A DNA stretch of 64,000 nucleotides from Escherichia phage vB_EcoM_G2494 (MK327935.1); one strand, 5' to 3'. Positions 3,206-61,465 are shown, numbered from the stretch's first letter. Notes: a model not told the origin generated them from the letters alone. Numbers and translations: made by a program.

Positions 3206-5029
3206 TTATGATTGCATCCAAATTTTGCGCTGATCTGCATCTTCACTATAGAGCAAATCGAATAGCTCTTTATAGTTTTCCGGTAACGTGATGATCTCCA
3301 TTACAGGATCGTTGATCACGCGATGATAATCTGATTCTGTAAGTGATGCTAACCCTTTGATATATCGAATGTTATAACCTTTGATATTATCTCTGTCGTT
3401 CTCGAAATCTTCTAGGTCATAATACCATCGAACATCATCACCTTTCTTTGGTTCCGCAATGATAATAGGTGTTTTGATAAACCGGATTCGTCCATCTTCG
3501 AACAGTTCAGGCCAACGTGCAAAGAAAGAGATCAGACTAGGTTTAATAGACCCGATGCCGTCAGTATCAGCGTCAGTCATAATCGCAATATTTTTGTATT
3601 GCATAACTTCCAGTGCATCAACACCAAATTGCAAGCCAGTGATCGCCATGATGTTAAAAATTTCGGCGTTCTTAACGATCTTTGCCTCCGGTTGTTCCCA
3701 CGTTGTAAGAGTTTTGCCTCGCAACGGGAAACCTCCATGTAAATCTTGATCACGTACAGAGATCAGATAGTTGATCGCGGAATCACCTTCCGTCAAAAAC
3801 AGGGTAGTTTCTGCGTCAGTTCCAATAAGGTTAGCTTTAACGTGTTTTGCTACCTTAGCCCGTTTCGCTGCCTTTGCTGCCTTAGTCGCTGCCGCTTTAT
3901 CTGCTGCCTCTTTGCGTGCTAGGACTACAGCAATAATAGGCATGATAATGTTTTCTTTCTTCGCAATGACTTTAGCCAGTTTTTTAAAATCAAGATCAAT
4001 ATGACGCTTGATATCACCAGTTGGATTAGTCAATCGTTCTTTTGTCTGTGAATCAAAGCGCAAGTTAGGCAATTCACGAACAATCAAAATACAGGTCAAT
4101 CCAGACTTAACCGCAGCTTTAGTAACATCAACCTTATAGTCTTTCTTGATTCGTTTTACAATCTCTTCACAAAGATCATCTGTCACGTAGTCTACGTGTG
4201 TTCCCCCGTTTTTGGTAAACAGACCATTAGCAAAGGATACTGATTTAAAACCTTCTCCCTCGACCGCAGGAACTATGGCAAGTGAAAAGTTTTTATCTTC
4301 AATGACAAACGGATCATCATTGTATAGTTTAGCATAATCCTTGAACTTACTAACAATACGTTTACCATTAAACTTAAACGTGATCTTAGGAAAGATTACG
4401 CTCAATGATTGCAGACGATCATGAACAATATCTAAAACAGAGTTGTCCATCATATAACCTTCGAAGTGGTCGAAGTCTGGGCAAAATGTAACCTTTGTTC
4501 CCTTCAATTTTGATGGTTTTGATGACCATGTGATATTTTCAGCACCATTTGTGCATTGAACGGTCATTTCTGTTTCACCGTCACAAGTTACACCAGTAAA
4601 CCAATCGCTAAAGAAATTTGACAACGACGACCCCACACCGTTCATCCCTTGCGTTAATCGATTGGTATCATCAAAGTTAGACCCTGCTTTTGTTCGTGTC
4701 CATGCGGCTACAGGTTGCGGAATCTGCGTACCCTCTGGAGTAGTAACCATATGTTGAGGAATACCGCGACCATTGTCTGTTACCGTAACAATATTGTTTT
4801 GGATATCGACGCTAATCACATTGGCAAATTCAAAATTAGTGCGGATCGCCTCGTCTACAGAGTTGTCGATGATCTCATCAATGATTTTAACCAGCCCAGG
4901 AACATATGAAATTTTTGTCCATTTACCGAACAGGAAACGTTGATGTTCTTCGTAAGTTGTTGATCCTATATACATTCCTGCACGCTTAAGGACATGTTCA
5001 CGATCAGATAAAATGCGAAACTCACTCAT
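3206..5029 (-). CDS. 39: DNA topoisomerase II large (ATPase, GyrB-like) subunit, fused gp39+gp60 form
   Basis: 607 aa; GHKL ATPase motifs (DNGRGIP), TOPRIM-like region; single uninterrupted ORF (no gene-60 bypass/split). Confidence 0.9.
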   Translation of the reverse strand: MSEFRILSDREHVLKRAGMYIGSTTYEEHQRFLFGKWTKISYVPGLVKIIDEIIDNSVDEAIRTNFEFANVISVDIQNNIVTVTDNGRGIPQHMVTTPEGTQIPQPVAAWTRTKAGSNFDDTNRLTQGMNGVGSSLSNFFSDWFTGVTCDGETEMTVQCTNGAENITWSSKPSKLKGTKVTFCPDFDHFEGYMMDNSVLDIVHDRLQSLSVIFPKITFKFNGKRIVSKFKDYAKLYNDDPFVIEDKNFSLAIVPAVEGEGFKSVSFANGLFTKNGGTHVDYVTDDLCEEIVKRIKKDYKVDVTKAAVKSGLTCILIVRELPNLRFDSQTKERLTNPTGDIKRHIDLDFKKLAKVIAKKENIIMPIIAVVLARKEAADKAAATKAAKAAKRAKVAKHVKANLIGTDAETTLFLTEGDSAINYLISVRDQDLHGGFPLRGKTLTTWEQPEAKIVKNAEIFNIMAITGLQFGVDALEVMQYKNIAIMTDADTDGIGSIKPSLISFFARWPELFEDGRIRFIKTPIIIAEPKKGDDVRWYYDLEDFENDRDNIKGYNIRYIKGLASLTESDYHRVINDPVMEIITLPENYKELFDLLYSEDADQRKIWMQS

Positions 5030-5128
5030 TATTAAACCTCTTCATAACATAACCATAACTTACTGCAACCGCCACAAAGACGGCTGCAACAATCATATTA
5101 AAAATTGAGTGATTGTCAAGTATATGAC

Positions 5129-5302
5129 TCATGACACGCGCACATTTTTATCGTAATACCCGCCATTAATCCCGCGCGGGGCAGTCAATCCCTGTTTGCA
5201 TTCTTTACCGCATTCAGGGCATTCTGCCTTTTCACGCTCGGAAATTTTGCGGATTTTCTGAAATTGACCGTGTTCTTCACAAGAATAATCGTATAATGGC
5301 AT
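5129..5302 (-). CDS. FmdB-like zinc-ribbon protein
   Basis: Trimmed to MPLYDYSCEEHG... with AAGGGGA SD; CxxHG...CPECG zinc ribbon pattern. Confidence 0.5.
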   Translation of the reverse strand: MPLYDYSCEEHGQFQKIRKISEREKAECPECGKECKQGLTAPRGINGGYYDKNVRVS

Positions 5303-11972: not shown

Positions 11973-12149
11973 CTAACCATTGTCTTTCTCCTTCTTGCGT
12001 TTTTCTTTACCCACTACGCTAGGTCCACGATTGGTAATAGATCCGCTCGTTTCACCTGCTGCGATCTTCTCAGGATTGCCGCCAGCATCGCCAGCGGTCA
12101 TATCTTCTTTGAGTTTATTTTCTTCAACAAACTGTTTAAATCCAATCAT
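11973..12149 (-). CDS. hypothetical small Gly/Lys-rich protein
   Basis: ~58-aa ORF not in the supplied table; ATG overlaps upstream stop (ATGA); low-complexity, so doubtful. Confidence 0.3.
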   Translation of the reverse strand: MIGFKQFVEENKLKEDMTAGDAGGNPEKIAAGETSGSITNRGPSVVGKEKRKKEKDNG

Positions 12150-13239: not shown

Positions 13240-14652
13240 TTAGAAAGTCATGGTATTTGCTAGCTCGTCGAGTTTTTCGCGTTTCTCGGCTTGCTGTGCG
13301 CTTTGTGGTTTAACTTGTGCATTCTCCTGATCTGCGATCTGGTTTGGGACTTCATACCAACGCTGATTGCCTTTCTTCACACCAACGTTAAACCGTGAAT
13401 AATAGTTCTTATCACCGTAACGAGACTTGATCTGCTTCATGAGTTGGACGCCCATTTTAGCCAGGTCTTCGGTTTCGATAACACCCAACATAAAGTCGGC
13501 AGTAGCCGGAAGACCTGCTGATTCAGCGGTATCACTCATGTTAAGGTCGGAAGCATCCCAACCCGCGCGGGTAGTCTGTGCCGCAGTCCAACCAACAACA
13601 TCCCACTTAACAAAAAATCCTCGCAGTTCTTCCGCAATCGCCTTAACTAGTGTGTAACTATTTTCAGAGTATACACGCAAGCGAGACGATGCGCAAATCC
13701 CCAGATAGTCAACAATCACAACATCAGGTTTAAACTGTTTCTTGAGTCGCAATTCATTCATTAACGCCTCAAAGTGATTGGAGTTCGCGCCACCAGTCGG
13801 ATACTGCTTGATCATCAATTTTCCAACCGGACGATCTCCGATCTTCTTATTCTTAACACGCTTCATACGTGCGGAATATTCCGCAAAAGAAACATTACCA
13901 TTATCCAATTCATCTAATGTAATGTCAAGCAAGTTTGCGTCGATACGTTTGGCTACGACATGCTCTGCCATCTCCATTGAGATATACAATACATCATAAC
14001 CACATTCCATATAATCCGCAGCAAGAGAACACAATCCAAGCGATTTACCAACGTTTACACCAGCAAGCAACACATTTAGCGTTTTTCTTTCCGCCCCTCC
14101 TTTCGTGATTTTATTCAACATCGGCAGCTTAAATGGGATCTTATTCGCCTTAGTCTGATATAACAGGAATCGTTTTTCAAAGTCATTAAACCAGTCATGA
14201 CCTACATCAGAATCAAACGTAATGGATAGTGCTTCCTGCATGATCTCAGGAATAGCACCCTCACTCGGCAATTTCTTATTCTGTTTCTCTTTTGGTAGTT
14301 GTGCGTTCGCCTGAATCTCTAGCGCCCGTGACATTGCATTATACATGGCACGGTCACGAATAAATTTTTCGGTTTCCTTCATTAACCAATCAAGGTCTTC
14401 CGGTGTATTCTCCAGCGAATCGAGAAGAGTTTTAGCCCCTTCATATGTTGTCTGATTGCCTCTCTCCTTGTCTAAAGCAATCTGTAATGCTGTTGGCGTA
14501 GGAATATTGGAATATTCGTCTACGTGCTTTTTAATCAGCTTATAAATCAGTTTTTCTTCGTCTTCGGTGAAGTAGTCCGCTTTAAGGTGAGGCCATACAT
14601 TCGTAAAGAATGCGCCATTGTAAATCAACTGTGAAAAGATAGTTTTAATCAT
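13240..14652 (-). CDS. 41: replicative DNA helicase (DnaB family)
   Basis: 470 aa; Walker A GVNVGKS, RecA-like core and strong collinearity with T4 gp41. Confidence 0.92.
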   Translation of the reverse strand: MIKTIFSQLIYNGAFFTNVWPHLKADYFTEDEEKLIYKLIKKHVDEYSNIPTPTALQIALDKERGNQTTYEGAKTLLDSLENTPEDLDWLMKETEKFIRDRAMYNAMSRALEIQANAQLPKEKQNKKLPSEGAIPEIMQEALSITFDSDVGHDWFNDFEKRFLLYQTKANKIPFKLPMLNKITKGGAERKTLNVLLAGVNVGKSLGLCSLAADYMECGYDVLYISMEMAEHVVAKRIDANLLDITLDELDNGNVSFAEYSARMKRVKNKKIGDRPVGKLMIKQYPTGGANSNHFEALMNELRLKKQFKPDVVIVDYLGICASSRLRVYSENSYTLVKAIAEELRGFFVKWDVVGWTAAQTTRAGWDASDLNMSDTAESAGLPATADFMLGVIETEDLAKMGVQLMKQIKSRYGDKNYYSRFNVGVKKGNQRWYEVPNQIADQENAQVKPQSAQQAEKREKLDELANTMTF

Positions 14653-30984: not shown

Positions 30985-31135
30985 GAATTACTTAATGATA
31001 CTTACTTTACCAGATCCATGACAATGAGCGCAACACCCATCACCACGCAATCCTGTTCCGTTACAGTGTTTACACTTCTTCAACGGTAAAGCCATTATAG
31101 CAAATAAAGCAATAATGAACACCGAAACTAAATTC

Positions 31136-31405
31136 TCAATAATCATAAATCTCCCTCAGTTCTTTATAGCCTCCAATGTGCTCGTTGTCAATGAATATCT
31201 GGGGGTATACAAATCGGAGGCTCTTTGAGTTCAGCCTCCCCGCCAGTTCTTCAATCATATCACGGTCGGGAATAATGTCAACCCCAACCTGCTTGAATAC
31301 TGGTTTAAGTGTATACGGAATACCCAGATCATCCAGTAGCTTCATTGCACTAATACAACCATAACAATGATAAGCCTCTTTCGGTATGCCGTATATCTCG
31401 ATCAT
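31136..31405 (-). CDS. nrdH: glutaredoxin-like protein (NrdH-type)
   Basis: 89 aa; CYGC redox motif near N-terminus, glutaredoxin fold pattern; in nrd gene neighbourhood. Confidence 0.65.
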   Translation of the reverse strand: MIEIYGIPKEAYHCYGCISAMKLLDDLGIPYTLKPVFKQVGVDIIPDRDMIEELAGRLNSKSLRFVYPQIFIDNEHIGGYKELREIYDY

Positions 31406-57003: not shown

Positions 57004-57204
57004 CTAAAATTTGTTAACGACGAATTGCATAATTAGACTAATCACAAACATTGCAAACCAAGTATAAATGCAACAGATAAAAGCTACATACAATTCAATC
57101 TGGTCAGAGAATACACCGGGTAAAAGCATTAGCAAAATAACAACAGTAAAGACGCTAGCGATACCCGCAACAAAACCAATATCATTTTTACTAATCGTCA
57201 TCAA
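57004..57204 (-). CDS. small membrane protein
   Basis: 66 aa, two TM helices. Confidence 0.4.
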   Translation of the reverse strand: MMTISKNDIGFVAGIASVFTVVILLMLLPGVFSDQIELYVAFICCIYTWFAMFVISLIMQFVVNKF

Positions 57205-57410
57205 GTCACCGTTTTGTAAAGAAACACAATAAAATCCAAGACAAGAAAGACAGTGTAAATGATCATCGTCAAGACAGTAAACACTGTCAAATTTTCATCG
57301 TTAGTTAATTCATAGTCGCCCATCCATACAATCACAAGATATAGCATTGAAAGAATGGAAGCACCTACGAAGTTAAAAAACATATTCTTGAGCGTCATAT
57401 TAACAACCAT
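57201..57410 (-). CDS. small membrane protein
   Basis: 69 aa, two TM helices. Confidence 0.4.
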   Translation of the reverse strand: MVVNMTLKNMFFNFVGASILSMLYLVIVWMGDYELTNDENLTVFTVLTMIIYTVFLVLDFIVFLYKTVT

Positions 57411-57582
57411 CGCGGCTTAAGTCAACAGCAATTGCATACAGCATAATGAATATGCTAGCAGATCCGAGAATCAATACACCCTCACATTTTGAAACTCGCT
57501 CATCAAAATGTAACATTATCCATCCGAGGATGTTAAAGGCGCAGACCGCGCCTATGTTCGCTAACCAATTAATCTTTTTCAT
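57400..57582 (-). CDS. small membrane protein
   Basis: 60 aa, two TM helices. Confidence 0.4.
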   Translation of the reverse strand: MKKINWLANIGAVCAFNILGWIMLHFDERVSKCEGVLILGSASIFIMLYAIAVDLSRDGC

Positions 57583-57590
57583 AATATACC

Positions 57591-57917
57591 TTAGAAAGAA
57601 ACAGTTTTCAAGAAATCCAGATTTTCAGTACCGAAAACAGAAAAGTAGTGTTTTCCTTTTTCGGTTTTAGAGAAAGCGATTGTCTTCTCTACATGGTGAC
57701 GGAAGCCAGACAGACGATCACCCAGGTCAAGGCGGCAAGCGTAAGTAGTGCCGTTTTCGAAAGTAACCTCGATTTGAGTTTTGTCATATTCGCTTTCATA
57801 GGCTTTTGCTGCCGCGTCCTGTGCTTTACGCTCGAAGTCTTCGAAGTGGAATACTTCGTTTGCTTTAGCGAATACAGAAGATTCAGAGAAGATAACTTTA
57901 ACAGATACTGGTTTCAT
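57591..57917 (-). CDS. hypothetical protein
   Basis: 108 aa; preceded by conserved leader ...AGGAGTATCAAA-ATG. Confidence 0.5.
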   Translation of the reverse strand: MKPVSVKVIFSESSVFAKANEVFHFEDFERKAQDAAAKAYESEYDKTQIEVTFENGTTYACRLDLGDRLSGFRHHVEKTIAFSKTEKGKHYFSVFGTENLDFLKTVSF

Positions 57918-57958
57918 TTTGATACTCCTTAGTAGTTCGTGTTTCGTTTCGATGGGTG

Positions 57959-57989
57959 TATTATGCTATACACCCTATCGCGTGTCAAC
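57959..57989 (-). promoter_or_regulatory. sigma70-type early promoter with conserved leader
   Basis: TTGACA - 17 nt - CATAAT then leader ACACCCATCGAAACGAAACAC. Confidence 0.5.
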
Positions 57990-57996
57990 AACTTTT

Positions 57997-58185
57997 TTAG
58001 TCTTTTTTCAAAATTTTTAAGGCAGTTTCTACAGCACCTTTCCAACCTTCCCACATAATGGACATAGTAAGGAAGTTAAAGCACCCGCAGGAATCAACCT
58101 TTTTAGAGATAAACCATTCAACAAATCCTTCGCTCATACCATGCTCTTTAGCGGATTCGCGTAATTGTTCAATTTGGTCTTCCAT
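57997..58185 (-). CDS. hypothetical protein
   Basis: 62-aa ORF. Confidence 0.4.
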   Translation of the reverse strand: MEDQIEQLRESAKEHGMSEGFVEWFISKKVDSCGCFNFLTMSIMWEGWKGAVETALKILKKD

Positions 58186-58207
58186 AGTATCACCTCAACA
58201 CTTAACG

Positions 58208-58402
58208 TTATTCAAACTCAAACGGTCTATTCAACCTATTGTAAAAGTACATATAACAAGCAAAATTATGTTTTGGCTGTACCGTATCAGATAGACACGC
58301 TTTTACAGCCTCGCGGTCCGATGGGTCTACACCCTCAGCTTTAAGTAATGCTAAAATCTGGTTATAGCGTACTCTTAGTTGTACTAATGGTTTATCCCCC
58401 AT
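58208..58402 (-). CDS. hypothetical protein
   Basis: 64-aa ORF. Confidence 0.4.
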   Translation of the reverse strand: MGDKPLVQLRVRYNQILALLKAEGVDPSDREAVKACLSDTVQPKHNFACYMYFYNRLNRPFEFE

Positions 58403-58411
58403 ATTACCCCC

Positions 58412-58633
58412 TTATAGTTGATCAGCGATGTAAGCGTGACAAGCGCGGAGTTTCATTAATGCACTACCTTTCACTTCGCCTACGATGTTCATAACTTCTA
58501 AGCGGTCGGATGGATTCATCTTAGAGCACCAGATCTGGTTAGCCAATTCCAGTTTACTCATATTTGGTTCCATCTCAAACAGTTCACGCTCAAAGTCGAT
58601 AATTTCTTTTGCTGCGTCTTTAAAGTTAATCAT
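58412..58633 (-). CDS. hypothetical protein
   Basis: 73-aa ORF. Confidence 0.4.
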   Translation of the reverse strand: MINFKDAAKEIIDFERELFEMEPNMSKLELANQIWCSKMNPSDRLEVMNIVGEVKGSALMKLRACHAYIADQL

Positions 58634-58654
58634 TTTGATTCTCCCGTTTCGTTG

Positions 58655-58691
58655 ATGTTTGTATTGTAGGGGAGTTATCCTCCCCTGTCAA
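58655..58691 (-). promoter_or_regulatory. sigma70-type early promoter with spacer stem-loop (PeSL-like)
   Basis: TTGACA - 17 nt - TACAAT; spacer holds GGGGAG/CTCCCC inverted repeat. Confidence 0.45.
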
Positions 58692-58699
58692 CACTTTTA

Positions 58700-58885
58700 T
58701 CAGAAATATGCAATATAGTTTGCCAGTCCTACAGAGTCATCATTCGGCATTGCTTTTACTGCCAGTTCAAACCCTGCTTCAACTTTCTGTTTAGCGGATT
58801 CTTCGTTATAACCCCAGATTACCAGAATAGCTACTACGTTTTCTTTGCTTACTGCTTTCAGTGCTTTAGTGATGCGACGTGCCAT
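58700..58885 (-). CDS. hypothetical protein
   Basis: 61 aa; conserved leader ...ACGGAGAATCAAATT-ATG. Confidence 0.4.
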   Translation of the reverse strand: MARRITKALKAVSKENVVAILVIWGYNEESAKQKVEAGFELAVKAMPNDDSVGLANYIAYF

Positions 58886-58930
58886 AATTTGATTCTCCGT
58901 TTAAGAAAGTGTGTTTCGTTTCGATGGGTG

Positions 58931-58961
58931 TATTATGCTATAGGCCGGATCTGGTGTCAAC
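58931..58961 (-). promoter_or_regulatory. sigma70-type early promoter with conserved leader
   Basis: TTGACA - 17 nt - CATAAT then ACACCCATCGAAACGAAACAC. Confidence 0.5.
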
Positions 58962-59162
58962 AACTTTTTTAAAAAATTTTAGGCAATAAAAAAGCCACTC
59001 CGAAGAGTGGCTTATAGGGAAGGTAGCGAATCTTCCTTGTCTCCAACCTGCTAGCGGCCTAGCAAGTGAATGCTTTAGCGTACCGGATCGCCCACATACG
59101 CTGTAATAAATGCGGCTAGGTGACGTCCAAATCATTCTAACCGCGCTGTCTTTAGTTCACTA

Positions 59163-59381
59163 TTATTTATATCGCTTTCTCTCGCGACGTTTTTGATCTT
59201 CTTCCTTGATAGAGTTAAATGCATCAAAAAGACACATGAAACTAATAATAAACATAACCGTATTTTCTATGATATCCCACGGCTTCGCATCAGTACAGAT
59301 CCCCCAAACGGTAAGAAATGCAAATAGTGCAGAAGAGATCACAAGCATGATACTTGCTAAGATATAAAAAGTCATTTTCAT
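59163..59381 (-). CDS. small membrane protein
   Basis: 72 aa, two TM helices, basic C-terminus. Confidence 0.4.
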   Translation of the reverse strand: MKMTFYILASIMLVISSALFAFLTVWGICTDAKPWDIIENTVMFIISFMCLFDAFNSIKEEDQKRRERKRYK

Positions 59382-59572
59382 GGTTTTACCTCAATTCTTC
59401 GATATTCATCACACATCCACGCAGTAAGCAAGAATCCCAACACATAAGCAACAAAATACGTTAATGCTTCTTCTGGTTCGGTGCTATGCGCCATCATCAG
59501 ACCAGCGAGAAAGGTCTTAACAATTACATTTAAAATAATTAGCCACGCAAATAATTTCATCGTTTGCCCCAT
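59378..59572 (-). CDS. small membrane protein
   Basis: 64 aa, two TM helices. Confidence 0.4.
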   Translation of the reverse strand: MGQTMKLFAWLIILNVIVKTFLAGLMMAHSTEPEEALTYFVAYVLGFLLTAWMCDEYRRIEVKP

Positions 59573-59796
59573 TTCGGTCGAGTCTTTTCAAACTTATACA
59601 TTCCGTAACAATCTCGAATCATCCACGTAACAAGAGCACCAGTCAACACAGACAATACACAGAAGAAGTAAAACGGTCCGGTTGCATTATCAACATGAGC
59701 AAGCCAGGTAAAGAAAACACATGCTAAGAATGTGAAGAACATCATAAAACACAAGAAAGCAAAATATTTTATGCTACTCATAGCGCCACCATACAA
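59557..59796 (-). CDS. small membrane protein
   Basis: 79 aa, two TM helices. Confidence 0.4.
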   Translation of the reverse strand: MYGGAMSSIKYFAFLCFMMFFTFLACVFFTWLAHVDNATGPFYFFCVLSVLTGALVTWMIRDCYGMYKFEKTRPKWGKR

Positions 59797-59884
59797 CAGA
59801 TCATAAGAAAACCCAACGCAATAAGAATTGCATCAAATTTAGTGAACTCCGGTCCACCTATCAACATCATTCGTTCTATTTCGT

Positions 59885-60127
59885 TCATAGCGTACAAAGC
59901 CATTTAAAAGCACCACATAAAGCGAGCAGAATACTAGGTATAAACGAGATCAAAACAAGGTTGCAAAAATCATCTAAGGTAACACCGGAATAGCTACCTA
60001 CTGTAACAACACCGATCATCAGACACAGAAAGAAAACAAATGCAATCAGAAACAAAGTATTACTAAACAGTTTAGTGATCATTAGACACCCCACGACGAT
60101 CAATTTCAAAAACTTTTTTATCATCAA
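59885..60127 (-). CDS. small membrane protein
   Basis: 80 aa, two TM helices. Confidence 0.4.
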   Translation of the reverse strand: MMIKKFLKLIVVGCLMITKLFSNTLFLIAFVFFLCLMIGVVTVGSYSGVTLDDFCNLVLISFIPSILLALCGAFKWLCTL

Positions 60128-60275
60128 CGAAGCATGTCACAACTGCCTCGTTGACTTCCGCAAATTGTTGTGTTACCCACTTAAGGTCAGAGCGAAACAA
60201 TGTTCTATTAATAACAAATGTTTTACCGCTCTTATCCTTACCCATAAATTTTGCTTTAACCATATCAAATTCCAT
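60072..60275 (-). CDS. hypothetical protein
   Basis: 67-aa ORF. Confidence 0.4.
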   Translation of the reverse strand: MEFDMVKAKFMGKDKSGKTFVINRTLFRSDLKWVTQQFAEVNEAVVTCFVDDKKVFEIDRRGVSNDH

Positions 60276-60293
60276 ATTATCACCTTATTTGCT

Positions 60294-60443
60294 AATCGCT
60301 AAACCCAATCCGAAGAGAGCACCCGATGCTACAGTATACCCGAAAGTTTCAAAGGCAGTAAAGATATCTAAGCCACCAGCTAACAGAGTTGCAGTAAACA
60401 GAGTACCAGCTACGAACATAAAAGTTTTACCGATGAATTTCAT
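60294..60443 (-). CDS. small membrane protein (unlisted ORF)
   Basis: ~50-aa hydrophobic ORF (MKFIGKTFMFVAGTLF...) behind conserved leader AGGAGAATCAAA-ATG; below table cutoff; coordinates approximate. Confidence 0.35.
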
Positions 60444-60469
60444 TTTGATTCTCCTTTCGTTTGTTTGTG

Positions 60470-60503
60470 GGGGTATCTTACTACCCCCGTTTCATGTTGT
60501 CAA
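60470..60503 (-). promoter_or_regulatory. sigma70-type early promoter with dyad symmetry (PeSL-like)
   Basis: TTGACA - 17 nt - TAAGAT; inverted repeat GGGGGTA/TACCCCC around -10. Confidence 0.45.
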
Positions 60504-60509
60504 CTATTT

Positions 60510-60884
60510 TTAAGAATATTTTACTTCGTCTACAATGTCTTTCATGACATTGATTTCCATTCCGGTCAGAACACGTTGGAACATGTGCTGCACATACGCT
60601 TTCAGGTATTCATTTGATGGCTTGCTATCGAAAGTCTTTTTAGTGTAGTAGTCATCACCGAAAGCTACTGTAATTACATTTTCGTCGTCGTTCCAAGCGA
60701 TATAAGCAAATTTGCCGTTATCCCAGAAGCGAGCACTAATTGCTACTTTTGTTGAATCGAATCCTACTTCGCTGTGAGATTCAAGAACTACTTGCGTACC
60801 AGTTTCTTTATGAATGTAGTAGCGGGATACTAAGTCAAAGTTACGGGTGTAGTGACATTCGAATTTATCTTTAAACATCATCAT
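60510..60884 (-). CDS. hypothetical protein
   Basis: Trimmed to MMMFKDKFE... behind conserved leader ...AGGAGAATCAAA-ATG. Confidence 0.45.
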   Translation of the reverse strand: MMMFKDKFECHYTRNFDLVSRYYIHKETGTQVVLESHSEVGFDSTKVAISARFWDNGKFAYIAWNDDENVITVAFGDDYYTKKTFDSKPSNEYLKAYVQHMFQRVLTGMEINVMKDIVDEVKYS

Positions 60885-60920
60885 TTTGATTCTCCTAAGT
60901 GTGTTTCGTTTCGATATGTG

Positions 60921-60951
60921 CATTATGCTATAGTCGTTTATGGTTGTCAAC
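60921..60951 (-). promoter_or_regulatory. sigma70-type early promoter with conserved leader
   Basis: TTGACA - 17 nt - CATAAT then leader CACATATCGAAACGAAACAC. Confidence 0.5.
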
Positions 60952-60960
60952 ACCTAAAAA

Positions 60961-60987
60961 CAAAAAACCCCGAAAAATTTTTCGGGG
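60961..60987 (-). terminator. intrinsic terminator after Acb1-like gene
   Basis: CCCCGAAAAATTTTTCGGGG hairpin followed by TTTTTTGTTTTT on minus strand. Confidence 0.55.
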
Positions 60988-60994
60988 TATAGAA

Positions 60995-61465
60995 TTACAG
61001 TTTGGTCGTCCACTCCAGGTCTAGATCTTCGACATACTCATGAGATCGGACAATCTCTAAATCGAACTCTAGGTTAGTGCCAAATTTACGCGCACCAACA
61101 TCATAAGAAAGCGTGATATGCGGTACATATTCAGGATAATCCCACGTCGCACCTAAAGCAGTGCCGATATCGTGTCTGAATTGCATGTAGTCGCTTTCAA
61201 ATGCCAGCACAAGCGCATTAGTACCGGATTGAGTTTCAAACACTTTCAGATGGCATAGAGAGCCTAAGAACTTCTCCCCTTCTTCTGGGATAAACGGAAC
61301 ATAGACACGAGAATATAAGATAGTGCTATGCAGTTTATCACGAGGAACGGCATTAGGCAGATCGTAGAACTCCTGCAATTTTTCAATGCGGTCTAGTGTA
61401 TCCTCAGTGAATTTAACCGCCGCATATGTACCTTTAACGGATTCTCGAAACGGGGTCATAATCAA
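60995..61465 (-). CDS. 2H phosphoesterase, Acb1-like (anti-CBASS cyclic-oligonucleotide phosphodiesterase candidate; T4 57B position)
   Basis: 156 aa; two H-x-T-x motifs (HSTIL, HITLS) typical of 2H phosphoesterases; immediately upstream of 57A as T4 57B/Acb1. Confidence 0.6.
   Translation of the reverse strand: MIMTPFRESVKGTYAAVKFTEDTLDRIEKLQEFYDLPNAVPRDKLHSTILYSRVYVPFIPEEGEKFLGSLCHLKVFETQSGTNALVLAFESDYMQFRHDIGTALGATWDYPEYVPHITLSYDVGARKFGTNLEFDLEIVRSHEYVEDLDLEWTTKL

Follow-up and report, generated by a model that had tools for sequence, protein, structure and literature searches.

Small early membrane proteins are among the least-understood phage genes, and the few that have been characterised, such as T4 Imm, govern phage entry. 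In the 64,000-nucleotide (nt) stretch of Escherichia phage vB_EcoM_G2494 (MK327935.1) analysed here, referred to as the window, about fourteen unrelated very small membrane proteins, mostly with two helices, are encoded within 5 kb of the predicted early region. Their open reading frames (ORFs) form cluster B (57004-57582) and cluster C (59163-60443), which an initial annotation of the segment 57004-60443 had pointed out, and cluster A, a run of like proteins that lies outside that segment.

T4 Imm is a small (83 amino acids [aa]), early, non-essential protein of the inner membrane. It has hydrophobic helices, ends in a charged tail and binds the tape-measure protein of the incoming phage, which prevents genome entry (bioRxiv 10.64898/2026.03.06.709160). 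The ORFs described here resemble it in small size, predicted early expression, hydrophobic helices and, for some of them, a charged tail. However, none of the 14 matched its family, PF14373, at E≤1 or E≤0.1, blastp against Imm gave E values of at least 3.8, and the T4 gene sits between genes 42 and 43, not in this region. Furthermore, the central loop of Imm is basic and its N-terminus periplasmic, whereas in most of the present ORFs the loop is acidic and the N-terminus basic, a predicted reversal in 11 of the 14. No Imm homologue was found in the RB49-like genome by tblastn (E of at least 4.3).

Two other parts of the T4 genome invite comparison. The T4 ORFs e.3, e.4 and trna.4 also encode two helices and belong to the syntenic vs.8-57B hyperplastic region, which extends from the endolysin gene to 57B/acb1, with e.3 and e.4 adjacent to each other. 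Since their sequences are unrelated to those of our ORFs, the likeness is positional, not homologous; e.3 and e.4, at 120-130 aa, have about double the length and carry long basic tails, and T4 has three such ORFs in the region versus about 14 here. For its part, the T4 dmd operon, where tifA, adfA and sp (an exclusion gene) are also located, has been termed an anti-TA (toxin-antitoxin) island (PMC9391042). Both loci present an early operon (predicted here) in which dmd is accompanied by small accessory genes, those of T4 acting against host defences or rivals, but the partners of dmd are membrane hairpins in our phage and the soluble TifA and AdfA and periplasmic Sp in T4, none of them homologous.

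The ORFs of clusters B and C, the soluble gene enclosed in cluster C, and cluster A are given below. Starts are those of PHROGs and RefSeq, resulting in lengths of 36-74 aa.

57004..57201, minus strand: B1, 65 aa, two-helix, RB49p110 orthologue, PHROG 15379; dimorphic locus.
57201..57398, minus strand: B2, 65 aa, two-helix, acidic loop GDYELTNDEN, RB49p111, PHROG 21837; present or absent depending on the relative.
57400..57582, minus strand: B3, 60 aa, two-helix, RB49p112, PHROG 16425.
59163..59381, minus strand: C1, 72 aa, two helices plus the basic tail KRRERKRYK, RB49p118, PHROG 15168.
59378..59560, minus strand: C2, 60 aa, two helices, acidic loop STEPEE, RB49p119, PHROG 15717.
59557..59781, minus strand: C3, 74 aa, two helices plus a basic tail, RB49p120, PHROG 15290.
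59778..59888, minus strand: C4, 36 aa, one C-terminal hydrophobic helix, RB49p121 with a shorter start, PHROG 15282.
59885..60082, minus strand: C5, 65 aa, two helices, RB49p122, PHROG 17225.
60072..60275, minus strand: dmd, 67 aa, soluble antitoxin against RnlA/LsoA; non-membrane, inside cluster C.
60285..60443, minus strand: C6, 52 aa, two Gly/Ala/Thr-rich helices, G41xxxG45xxxA49, RB49p124; first gene of the operon.
55393..56388, minus strand: cluster A (A1-A5), like proteins of 52-71 aa.

Comparison of the segment 55000-61000 with phage records gave 60 matches. Of these, 52 spanned the greater part of the query with 95-99% identity, and every one of the 52 was an RB49-like Krischvirus (Straboviridae), the closest record being Escherichia phage W115 (98.2% identity). 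The gene order, vs.8, M15 endolysin, small ORFs, 55.3, small ORFs, dmd, 57B, 57A, 1, 3, was that of RB49 and W115, in agreement with the T4-type phage that had been proposed, and all genes of the region lie on the minus strand. The genes of clusters B and C have been in databases since 2003, as 'hypothetical protein' in RB49 (RB49p110-112 and p118-124) and 'putative membrane protein' in W115. What is new here is that, as judged from their sequences, nearly all the small membrane proteins of the phage are mutually unrelated and map to a single 5-kb stretch, predicted to be early, where two counter-defence genes are their neighbours.

Hydropathy analysis (Kyte-Doolittle, 19-residue window, threshold 1.6) revealed two hydrophobic segments in each of B1, B2, B3, C1, C2, C3, C5 and A2-A5. 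C6 showed one segment at the threshold and contains two 19-residue charge-free stretches rich in Gly, Ala and Thr; its second helix was accepted because of the 19-residue charge-free segment and the AlphaFold2 model. Structure models covered two proteins, B1 and C6, and both were predicted as helix-turn-helix hairpins, with helices at residues 5-30 and 35-64 in B1 (predicted local distance difference test [pLDDT] score of 73) and at residues 3-22 and 27-50 in C6 (pLDDT 70). Thus, the two-helix membrane ORFs announced for 57004-57582 were borne out by hydropathy in B1-B3 and by the hairpin model in B1. The run at 59163-60443 was confirmed as such for C1-C3, C5 and C6, but C4 has a single helix and 60072-60275 encodes the soluble Dmd. 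Similarly, the lengths of 50-80 aa hold for the two-helix ORFs (52-74 aa) and not for C4.

The distribution of charges was similar in most of the proteins. Eleven of the 14 ORFs carry Lys/Arg at the N-terminus and solely Asp/Glu in the central turn, and the C-terminus is basic in most of these 11, with A3 and A4 ending acidic; a basic central loop was observed in A5 alone. Loops are 1-8 residues long and the ORFs contain no periplasmic domain. Applying the positive-inside rule to this pattern, the proteins are predicted to sit in the inner membrane as N-in/C-in hairpins whose short, acidic loop faces the periplasm. The short charged tails attributed to the ORFs were found in part, since strongly basic C-terminal tails are confined to C1, C3 and A2, and that of C2, although charged, is net neutral.

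The ORFs are genuine, selectively maintained genes, because they are intact in relatives and their ratios of nonsynonymous to synonymous substitution (dN/dS) are well below 1. The gene-by-gene comparison included nine GenBank relatives and L017, a divergent 175-kb metagenomic contig, and the ORFs were intact in all of them, with exceptions in B2 and B1 that are described below. The pooled ratio of nonsynonymous to synonymous polymorphism (pN/pS) in the nine relatives was 0.07-0.56, with C6 at 0.07, and dN/dS against L017 ranged from 0.04 to 0.51 for every membrane ORF, with dS up to 1.2. C1 shares 65% aa identity with its counterpart in L017 (dS of 1.2, saturated; dN/dS of 0.19), B3 is intact in all relatives (dN/dS of 0.24 against L017), and C3 is the most conserved membrane ORF of its cluster in that comparison (dN/dS of 0.04-0.11). 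C5 is intact in L017 though uncalled as a gene there. Substitutions with respect to L017 were mainly conservative and located within helices; no change was seen in the loop of B2 (GDYELTNDEN), in the tails of C2 and A2, or in the loop and second helix of C6. Cluster C was detected in 58 of 58 Krischvirus records.

The small membrane genes were also clustered to a degree not expected by chance. With a crude whole-genome gene set made up of the window plus RB49 64-164 kb, 10 adjacent pairs of small hydrophobic-helix ORFs were counted, compared to 1.3 expected (permutation p≤1e-5), and a RefSeq cross-check placed about 14 of the genome's approximately 19 small membrane genes inside this 5 kb. About five lie outside, namely RB49p167, the spanin gene pseT.3 and the window ORFs 5022-5132, 30988-31146 and 49603-49896. 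Two of these are small two-helix ORFs, 49603-49896 (minus strand; 97 aa, without Pfam match) and RB49p167 (RB49 98607-98804; 65 aa).

Comparison of the clusters between relatives, besides showing intact ORFs under purifying selection, revealed that cluster B is dimorphic. B2 plus B1 were present in 47 of the 58 records, and a single 64-aa ORF, B1alt, 34-35% identical to B1, in the remaining 11; L017 pairs B2 with the B1alt allele. B2 is absent in MIZ4 and phiS, and in W115 and JK32 a 1-nt deletion leaves a 48-aa ORF that starts at an internal Met. The breakpoints of this presence/replacement polymorphism are located inside the cluster, not at the repeats described below. No synonymous variation was observed in B1 among its eight carriers while the adjacent B3 varies, which suggests that the B2-B1 segment spread recently. 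The soluble neighbours were 96-100% identical in L017, whereas the membrane ORFs were 35-89% identical (C3, 99%), and dS varied thirty-fold between adjoining genes. Such a pattern is that of allele-level mosaicism, as expected for accessory genes, to judge from these alignments.

Each ORF falls in its own PHROG, none of which has an assigned function, and no family match above threshold was obtained for the 14 ORFs in Pfam, NCBIfam or PADLOC. All-against-all blastp gave E values of at least 0.17 throughout except for B1/B1alt, and profile-profile comparison with hhalign gave probabilities of 8% or less. A tandem paralogous family was therefore rejected on the grounds of separate PHROGs, blastp and hhalign, and the term 'tandem' used in the initial annotation does not apply in the sense of repeats. 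A tblastn search of 50,697 phage records with the concatenated B and C proteins, a concatenation that lowers sensitivity somewhat, found matches in 58 Krischvirus records only. With C3, B1alt and C6 as queries, word-indexed searching of 5.8 billion proteins yielded Krischvirus-like matches only, and an exhaustive HMMER search of 1.84 billion representatives with a B1 plus B1alt profile recovered their own cluster and one repetitive spurious match. Foldseek comparison of the B1 and C6 models with BFVD gave nothing at E≤0.001 and generic helical hairpins only, a two-helix hairpin holding too little fold information for structure search. T4 Imm, Sp, 61.1, 61.2, 61.4, imm.1, RI, e.2, e.3, e.4 and trna.4 were unrelated to the 14 ORFs. 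A literature search on the RB49 locus tags, Krischvirus exclusion and transcriptomics found nothing on these genes. Taken together with the polymorphisms above, these comparisons show, at the level of sequence, 14 proteins that are mutually unrelated, restricted to the genus and exchanged as gene-sized alleles. A host origin of the cluster was also considered, and it was discarded because blastn of 57004-60443 against 5,426 complete Escherichia coli genomes gave no match.

The arrangement of cluster C is compact. Overlaps of 4 nt (ATGA) were found at C5/C4, C4/C3, C3/C2 and C2/C1, that of dmd/C5 is 11 nt, and the remaining junctions are -1, +1, +8 or +9 nt; hence, true overlaps amount to 1-11 nt with small gaps otherwise, and not to the few codons initially described. 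A longer, 41-aa start is available for C4, but six of nine relatives have stop codons upstream and PHROG 15282 covers residues 6-41 of the long form, so a length of 36 aa was assigned. Dmd itself is well identified (Pfam Dmd, E=1.5e-15; PHROG 2102; 47% identical to T4 Dmd). With these junctions, C6-dmd-C5-C4-C3-C2-C1 reads as one translationally coupled operon.

The control elements predicted for the region and the neighbouring genes to which they refer are as follows.

57960..57988, minus strand: early promoter, TTGACA-17-CATAAT, 11/12 matches, in repeat D1; precedes N3 and then B3-B2-B1; promoter annotated in GEC-3S.
60475..60503, minus strand: early promoter in a repeat (D2) of the type described below; precedes C6-dmd-C5-C4-C3-C2-C1; promoter annotated in GEC-3S.
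58992..59013, minus strand: intrinsic terminator that ends the C operon; 9-bp stem plus T-run; annotated in GEC-3S.
58932-58960, minus strand: early promoter that follows the C-operon terminator.
57591-57917, minus strand: N3, LPD25 domain gene, upstream of B3-B2-B1.
54975-55364, minus strand: M15 endolysin gene, which adjoins cluster A.
60995-61459, minus strand: acb1 (57B), PF23474 anti-CBASS (cyclic oligonucleotide-based antiphage signalling system) nuclease, E=1.2e-51; 550 bp upstream of the C operon.

The RefSeq name 57B, or 'RNA ligase', for the last of these genes is outdated, since Pfam identifies it as the Acb1 anti-CBASS nuclease.

PeSL (promoter-early stem-loop) cassettes have been described in RB49 and phi1 (PMC2839356; PMC4122927). 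The repeat families D1 and D2 have the same composition, with a conserved early promoter flanked by a G/C-rich stem-loop: on the coding strand, an A-rich tract, GTTGACA, a 17-nt spacer and CATAAT lie beside the stem-loop. Copies were located at 57939-57999, 58911-58971, 60440-60522 and 60901-60961, bordering whole clusters and not individual membrane ORFs. A consensus scan predicted early sigma-70-type promoters at 60950, 60503, 58960, 58691 and 57988, the five inside D1/D2 and of the form TTGACA-17-(C/T)A(T/C)AAT or TAAGAT, as well as strong terminators at 60988-60967 and 59013-58992. These five promoters and two terminators are independently annotated in the GEC-3S record, and variation of the 58992-59013 terminator among relatives is confined to loop bases. 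From these predictions, the C operon would start at the 60503 promoter and end at the 59013-58992 terminator. No terminator was predicted between the group under the 57988 promoter (N3-B3-B2-B1) and N2, N1, A5-A1 and the endolysin gene. A single perfect late-promoter motif was found in the region, at the 3' end of C1, and none upstream of the small membrane ORFs. A near-consensus sigma-70 promoter (55779-55807, minus strand; TTGACA-17-TATTAT, 11/12) was also noticed at the A3/A2 junction, with its -10 box within A2; it could give A1 and the endolysin gene an early transcript of their own, or be due to chance.

The replacement of B1 by B1alt and the loss of B2 agree with the insertion, deletion and replacement of ORFans reported by Arbiol et al. 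(2010; PMC2839356) for the same phage group with the same PeSL repeats. That work, however, dealt with the mechanism of shuffling and not with the membrane nature or clustering of the products, the word 'membrane' appearing in it for filtration only.

Between the C1 stop codon and the terminator, the following unannotated element was found.

59014..59162 (58984-59171 in a wider span), minus strand: non-coding structured stretch, approximately 150-170 nt.

It was 96-100% identical in all 58 Krischvirus records, with values of about 97-100% for the part at 59014-59162 among the relatives, and in L017 it was nearly invariant, whereas the adjoining C1 gene was 72% identical. Its predicted fold comprises four hairpins (-60 kcal/mol, z=-3.4), with one compensatory pair, G-C to A-U. 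A 65-aa ORF at 58938-59135 was rejected as a coding candidate because of 1-2-nt indels among relatives. The late-promoter motif TATAAATA (59171-59164), perfect and invariant, is just upstream of the element and is one of three in the 64-kb window. The element had no match in Rfam, to tRNA or to tmRNA, and no similarity to T4 rnaC/rnaD. This highly conserved, structured element of about 170 nt is also new here, and could be either a small RNA that the phage expresses late or a structured 3' untranslated region.

As to the function of the membrane proteins, we consider, with a probability of roughly 0.4, that they could be early, dispensable accessory effectors of the envelope directed against rival phages or membrane-linked host defences, and not lysis proteins. 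They would be made within minutes of infection and act on cell-envelope targets, each hairpin binding a different membrane-embedded partner. Such a partner might be the DNA-injection channel of a rival phage, in the way that T4 Imm binds the tape-measure protein, or a membrane-bound host defence or abortive-infection effector. The hairpins would then share a counter-defence and competition toolkit with their neighbours Dmd and Acb1, separate from the lysis machinery. An early role directed at the host or at competitors is favoured over lysis control because of the sigma-70-type promoters, the predicted co-transcription with dmd and the proximity of acb1. Accessory behaviour is suggested by the B1/B1alt dimorphism, the loss or frameshift of B2 and the divergence of the membrane ORFs in L017, and specific constraint by invariant loops and tails with conservative changes in the helices.

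Several observations weigh against this proposal. All family searches were empty and no homology links any ORF to a function; the predicted N-in/C-in topology is the opposite of that of Imm; and no gene showed a dN/dS above 1. Association with dmd and acb1 is a weak guide where PeSL recombination shuffles gene order, and looser constraint on transmembrane residues, as opposed to an arms race, could account for the higher divergence of the membrane ORFs. In addition, promoters and terminators are consensus predictions, for which the literature search found no transcript data. The roles initially proposed (superinfection exclusion, lysis inhibition or membrane targeting) are an analogy, if a reasonable one; in sequence, none of the ORFs resembles T4 Imm, Sp, RI, e.3, e.4 or trna.4.

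The same topology and expression predictions are open to other explanations. S21-type (class II) holins have two helices, an N-in/C-in topology and a charged tail, a design shared by pinholins such as phage 21 S68 (about 70 aa), and the hairpins could set the timing of lysis as holins, pinholins or antiholins, adjusting the action of the T holin and of the M15 endolysin and taking the place of the RI antiholin. Basic tails of this kind are present in C1, C3 and A2, the predicted resemblance being weaker in C2, B1, B2, C5 and C6, and the helices of C6 and A3 are Gly/Ala/Ser-rich, like signal-anchor-release (SAR) or glycine-zipper domains. Cluster A abuts the endolysin gene, and as no terminator is predicted downstream of the 57988 promoter, B, A and the endolysin may share transcripts. 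RI was not detected in the RB49-like genome by tblastn (nothing at E≤1), but T4 RI consists of a SAR helix plus a periplasmic domain of the kind that these ORFs lack. The best hit to a holin family profile was that of C3 to Phage_holin_3_6, weak and non-significant (E=0.049, 14 bits versus a cut-off of 28.4). Against a lysis role, the T holin (RB49p254) and the spanins pseT.2/pseT.3 are annotated elsewhere in RB49, so that none is needed from the hairpins; all promoters found upstream are early-type, the sole perfect late motif being at the wrong end of C1; cluster C is predicted to be co-transcribed with dmd, 4-5 kb away from the endolysin gene; and fourteen unrelated lysis regulators would be unprecedented. 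We therefore regard lysis timing as quite unlikely.

Predicted early expression and inner-membrane hairpins would equally suit host-takeover factors. These would block or divert machinery of the host's inner membrane, such as transporters, respiratory complexes, FtsH/HflKC, the divisome or cell-wall lipid-II enzymes, and would not act on rival phages or defences. Many phage early ORFans are toxic inhibitors of host proteins, and purifying selection with kept loops and tails points to specific partners. Nevertheless, host core machinery is conserved and fits poorly with genus-restricted, dimorphic and dispensable genes or with allele-level mosaicism, and no match to known inhibitors was found; this explanation is thus weakened, and we judge it unlikely. 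At the other extreme, the ORFs might have little or no function, as hitch-hikers or recent filler in a hyperplastic region with a T-rich coding strand and PeSL shuffling. They are ORFans without homologues beyond the genus, some are lost or frameshifted in phages that stay viable, and an excess of T on the coding strand was observed throughout the region. If they were mere accessory ORFans, this would be a typical T4-like hyperplastic region. Yet dN/dS was well under 1 in every ORF, even at saturating dS, cluster C was present in every Krischvirus record with its ORFs intact in the 10 relatives examined, and the tight translational coupling and invariant loops and tails are also difficult to reconcile with filler, making it very unlikely. 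The region is a compact, clonable candidate set for superinfection-exclusion and anti-defence screens in a coliphage genus of the therapeutic type.

A bolder version of that reading, which we put forward as a speculation of low probability, is an 'envelope-effector island' in which each of the approximately 14 unrelated hairpins would be dedicated to inhibiting a target of its own. The hairpins would share their regulation with Dmd and Acb1 and pass between phages allele by allele, and the conserved non-coding RNA would act as late regulator of the island. Targets could be membrane-bound effectors of abortive infection or the injection channels of different groups of rival phages, against which the hairpins would form a set of Imm-like immunities analogous to colicin immunity arrays.

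Some additional features were noticed in the window. None of the 14 ORFs is similar to T4 Spackle (Sp), which combines a signal peptide with a periplasmic inhibitor domain directed at the gp5 lysozyme. A weak match to Sp was obtained by tblastn at 13393-13587 (minus strand; E=0.049, 27% identity in 74 aa), close to the homologue of 61.1 (11982-12149). Given its position, syntenic with T4 sp, this may be a divergent Sp. N7 (58700-58885, DUF7421) lies between two PeSL promoters; its protein is 100% conserved in Krischvirus, and its DNA is 71-79% identical to a gene of many T1-like Drexlerviridae phages of about 50 kb. Similarly, N5/N6 (58208-58633) are 83% identical to part of phage GaoY1-9D. 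Both matches look like gene exchange between unrelated coliphage families. Finally, in a metagenomic contig (ena:ERZ27235393:k99_1567) the baseplate genes gp7 and gp6 directly follow N1, in the place of cluster A. This arrangement probably arose by chimeric assembly at a repeat, although a true rearrangement might also account for it.

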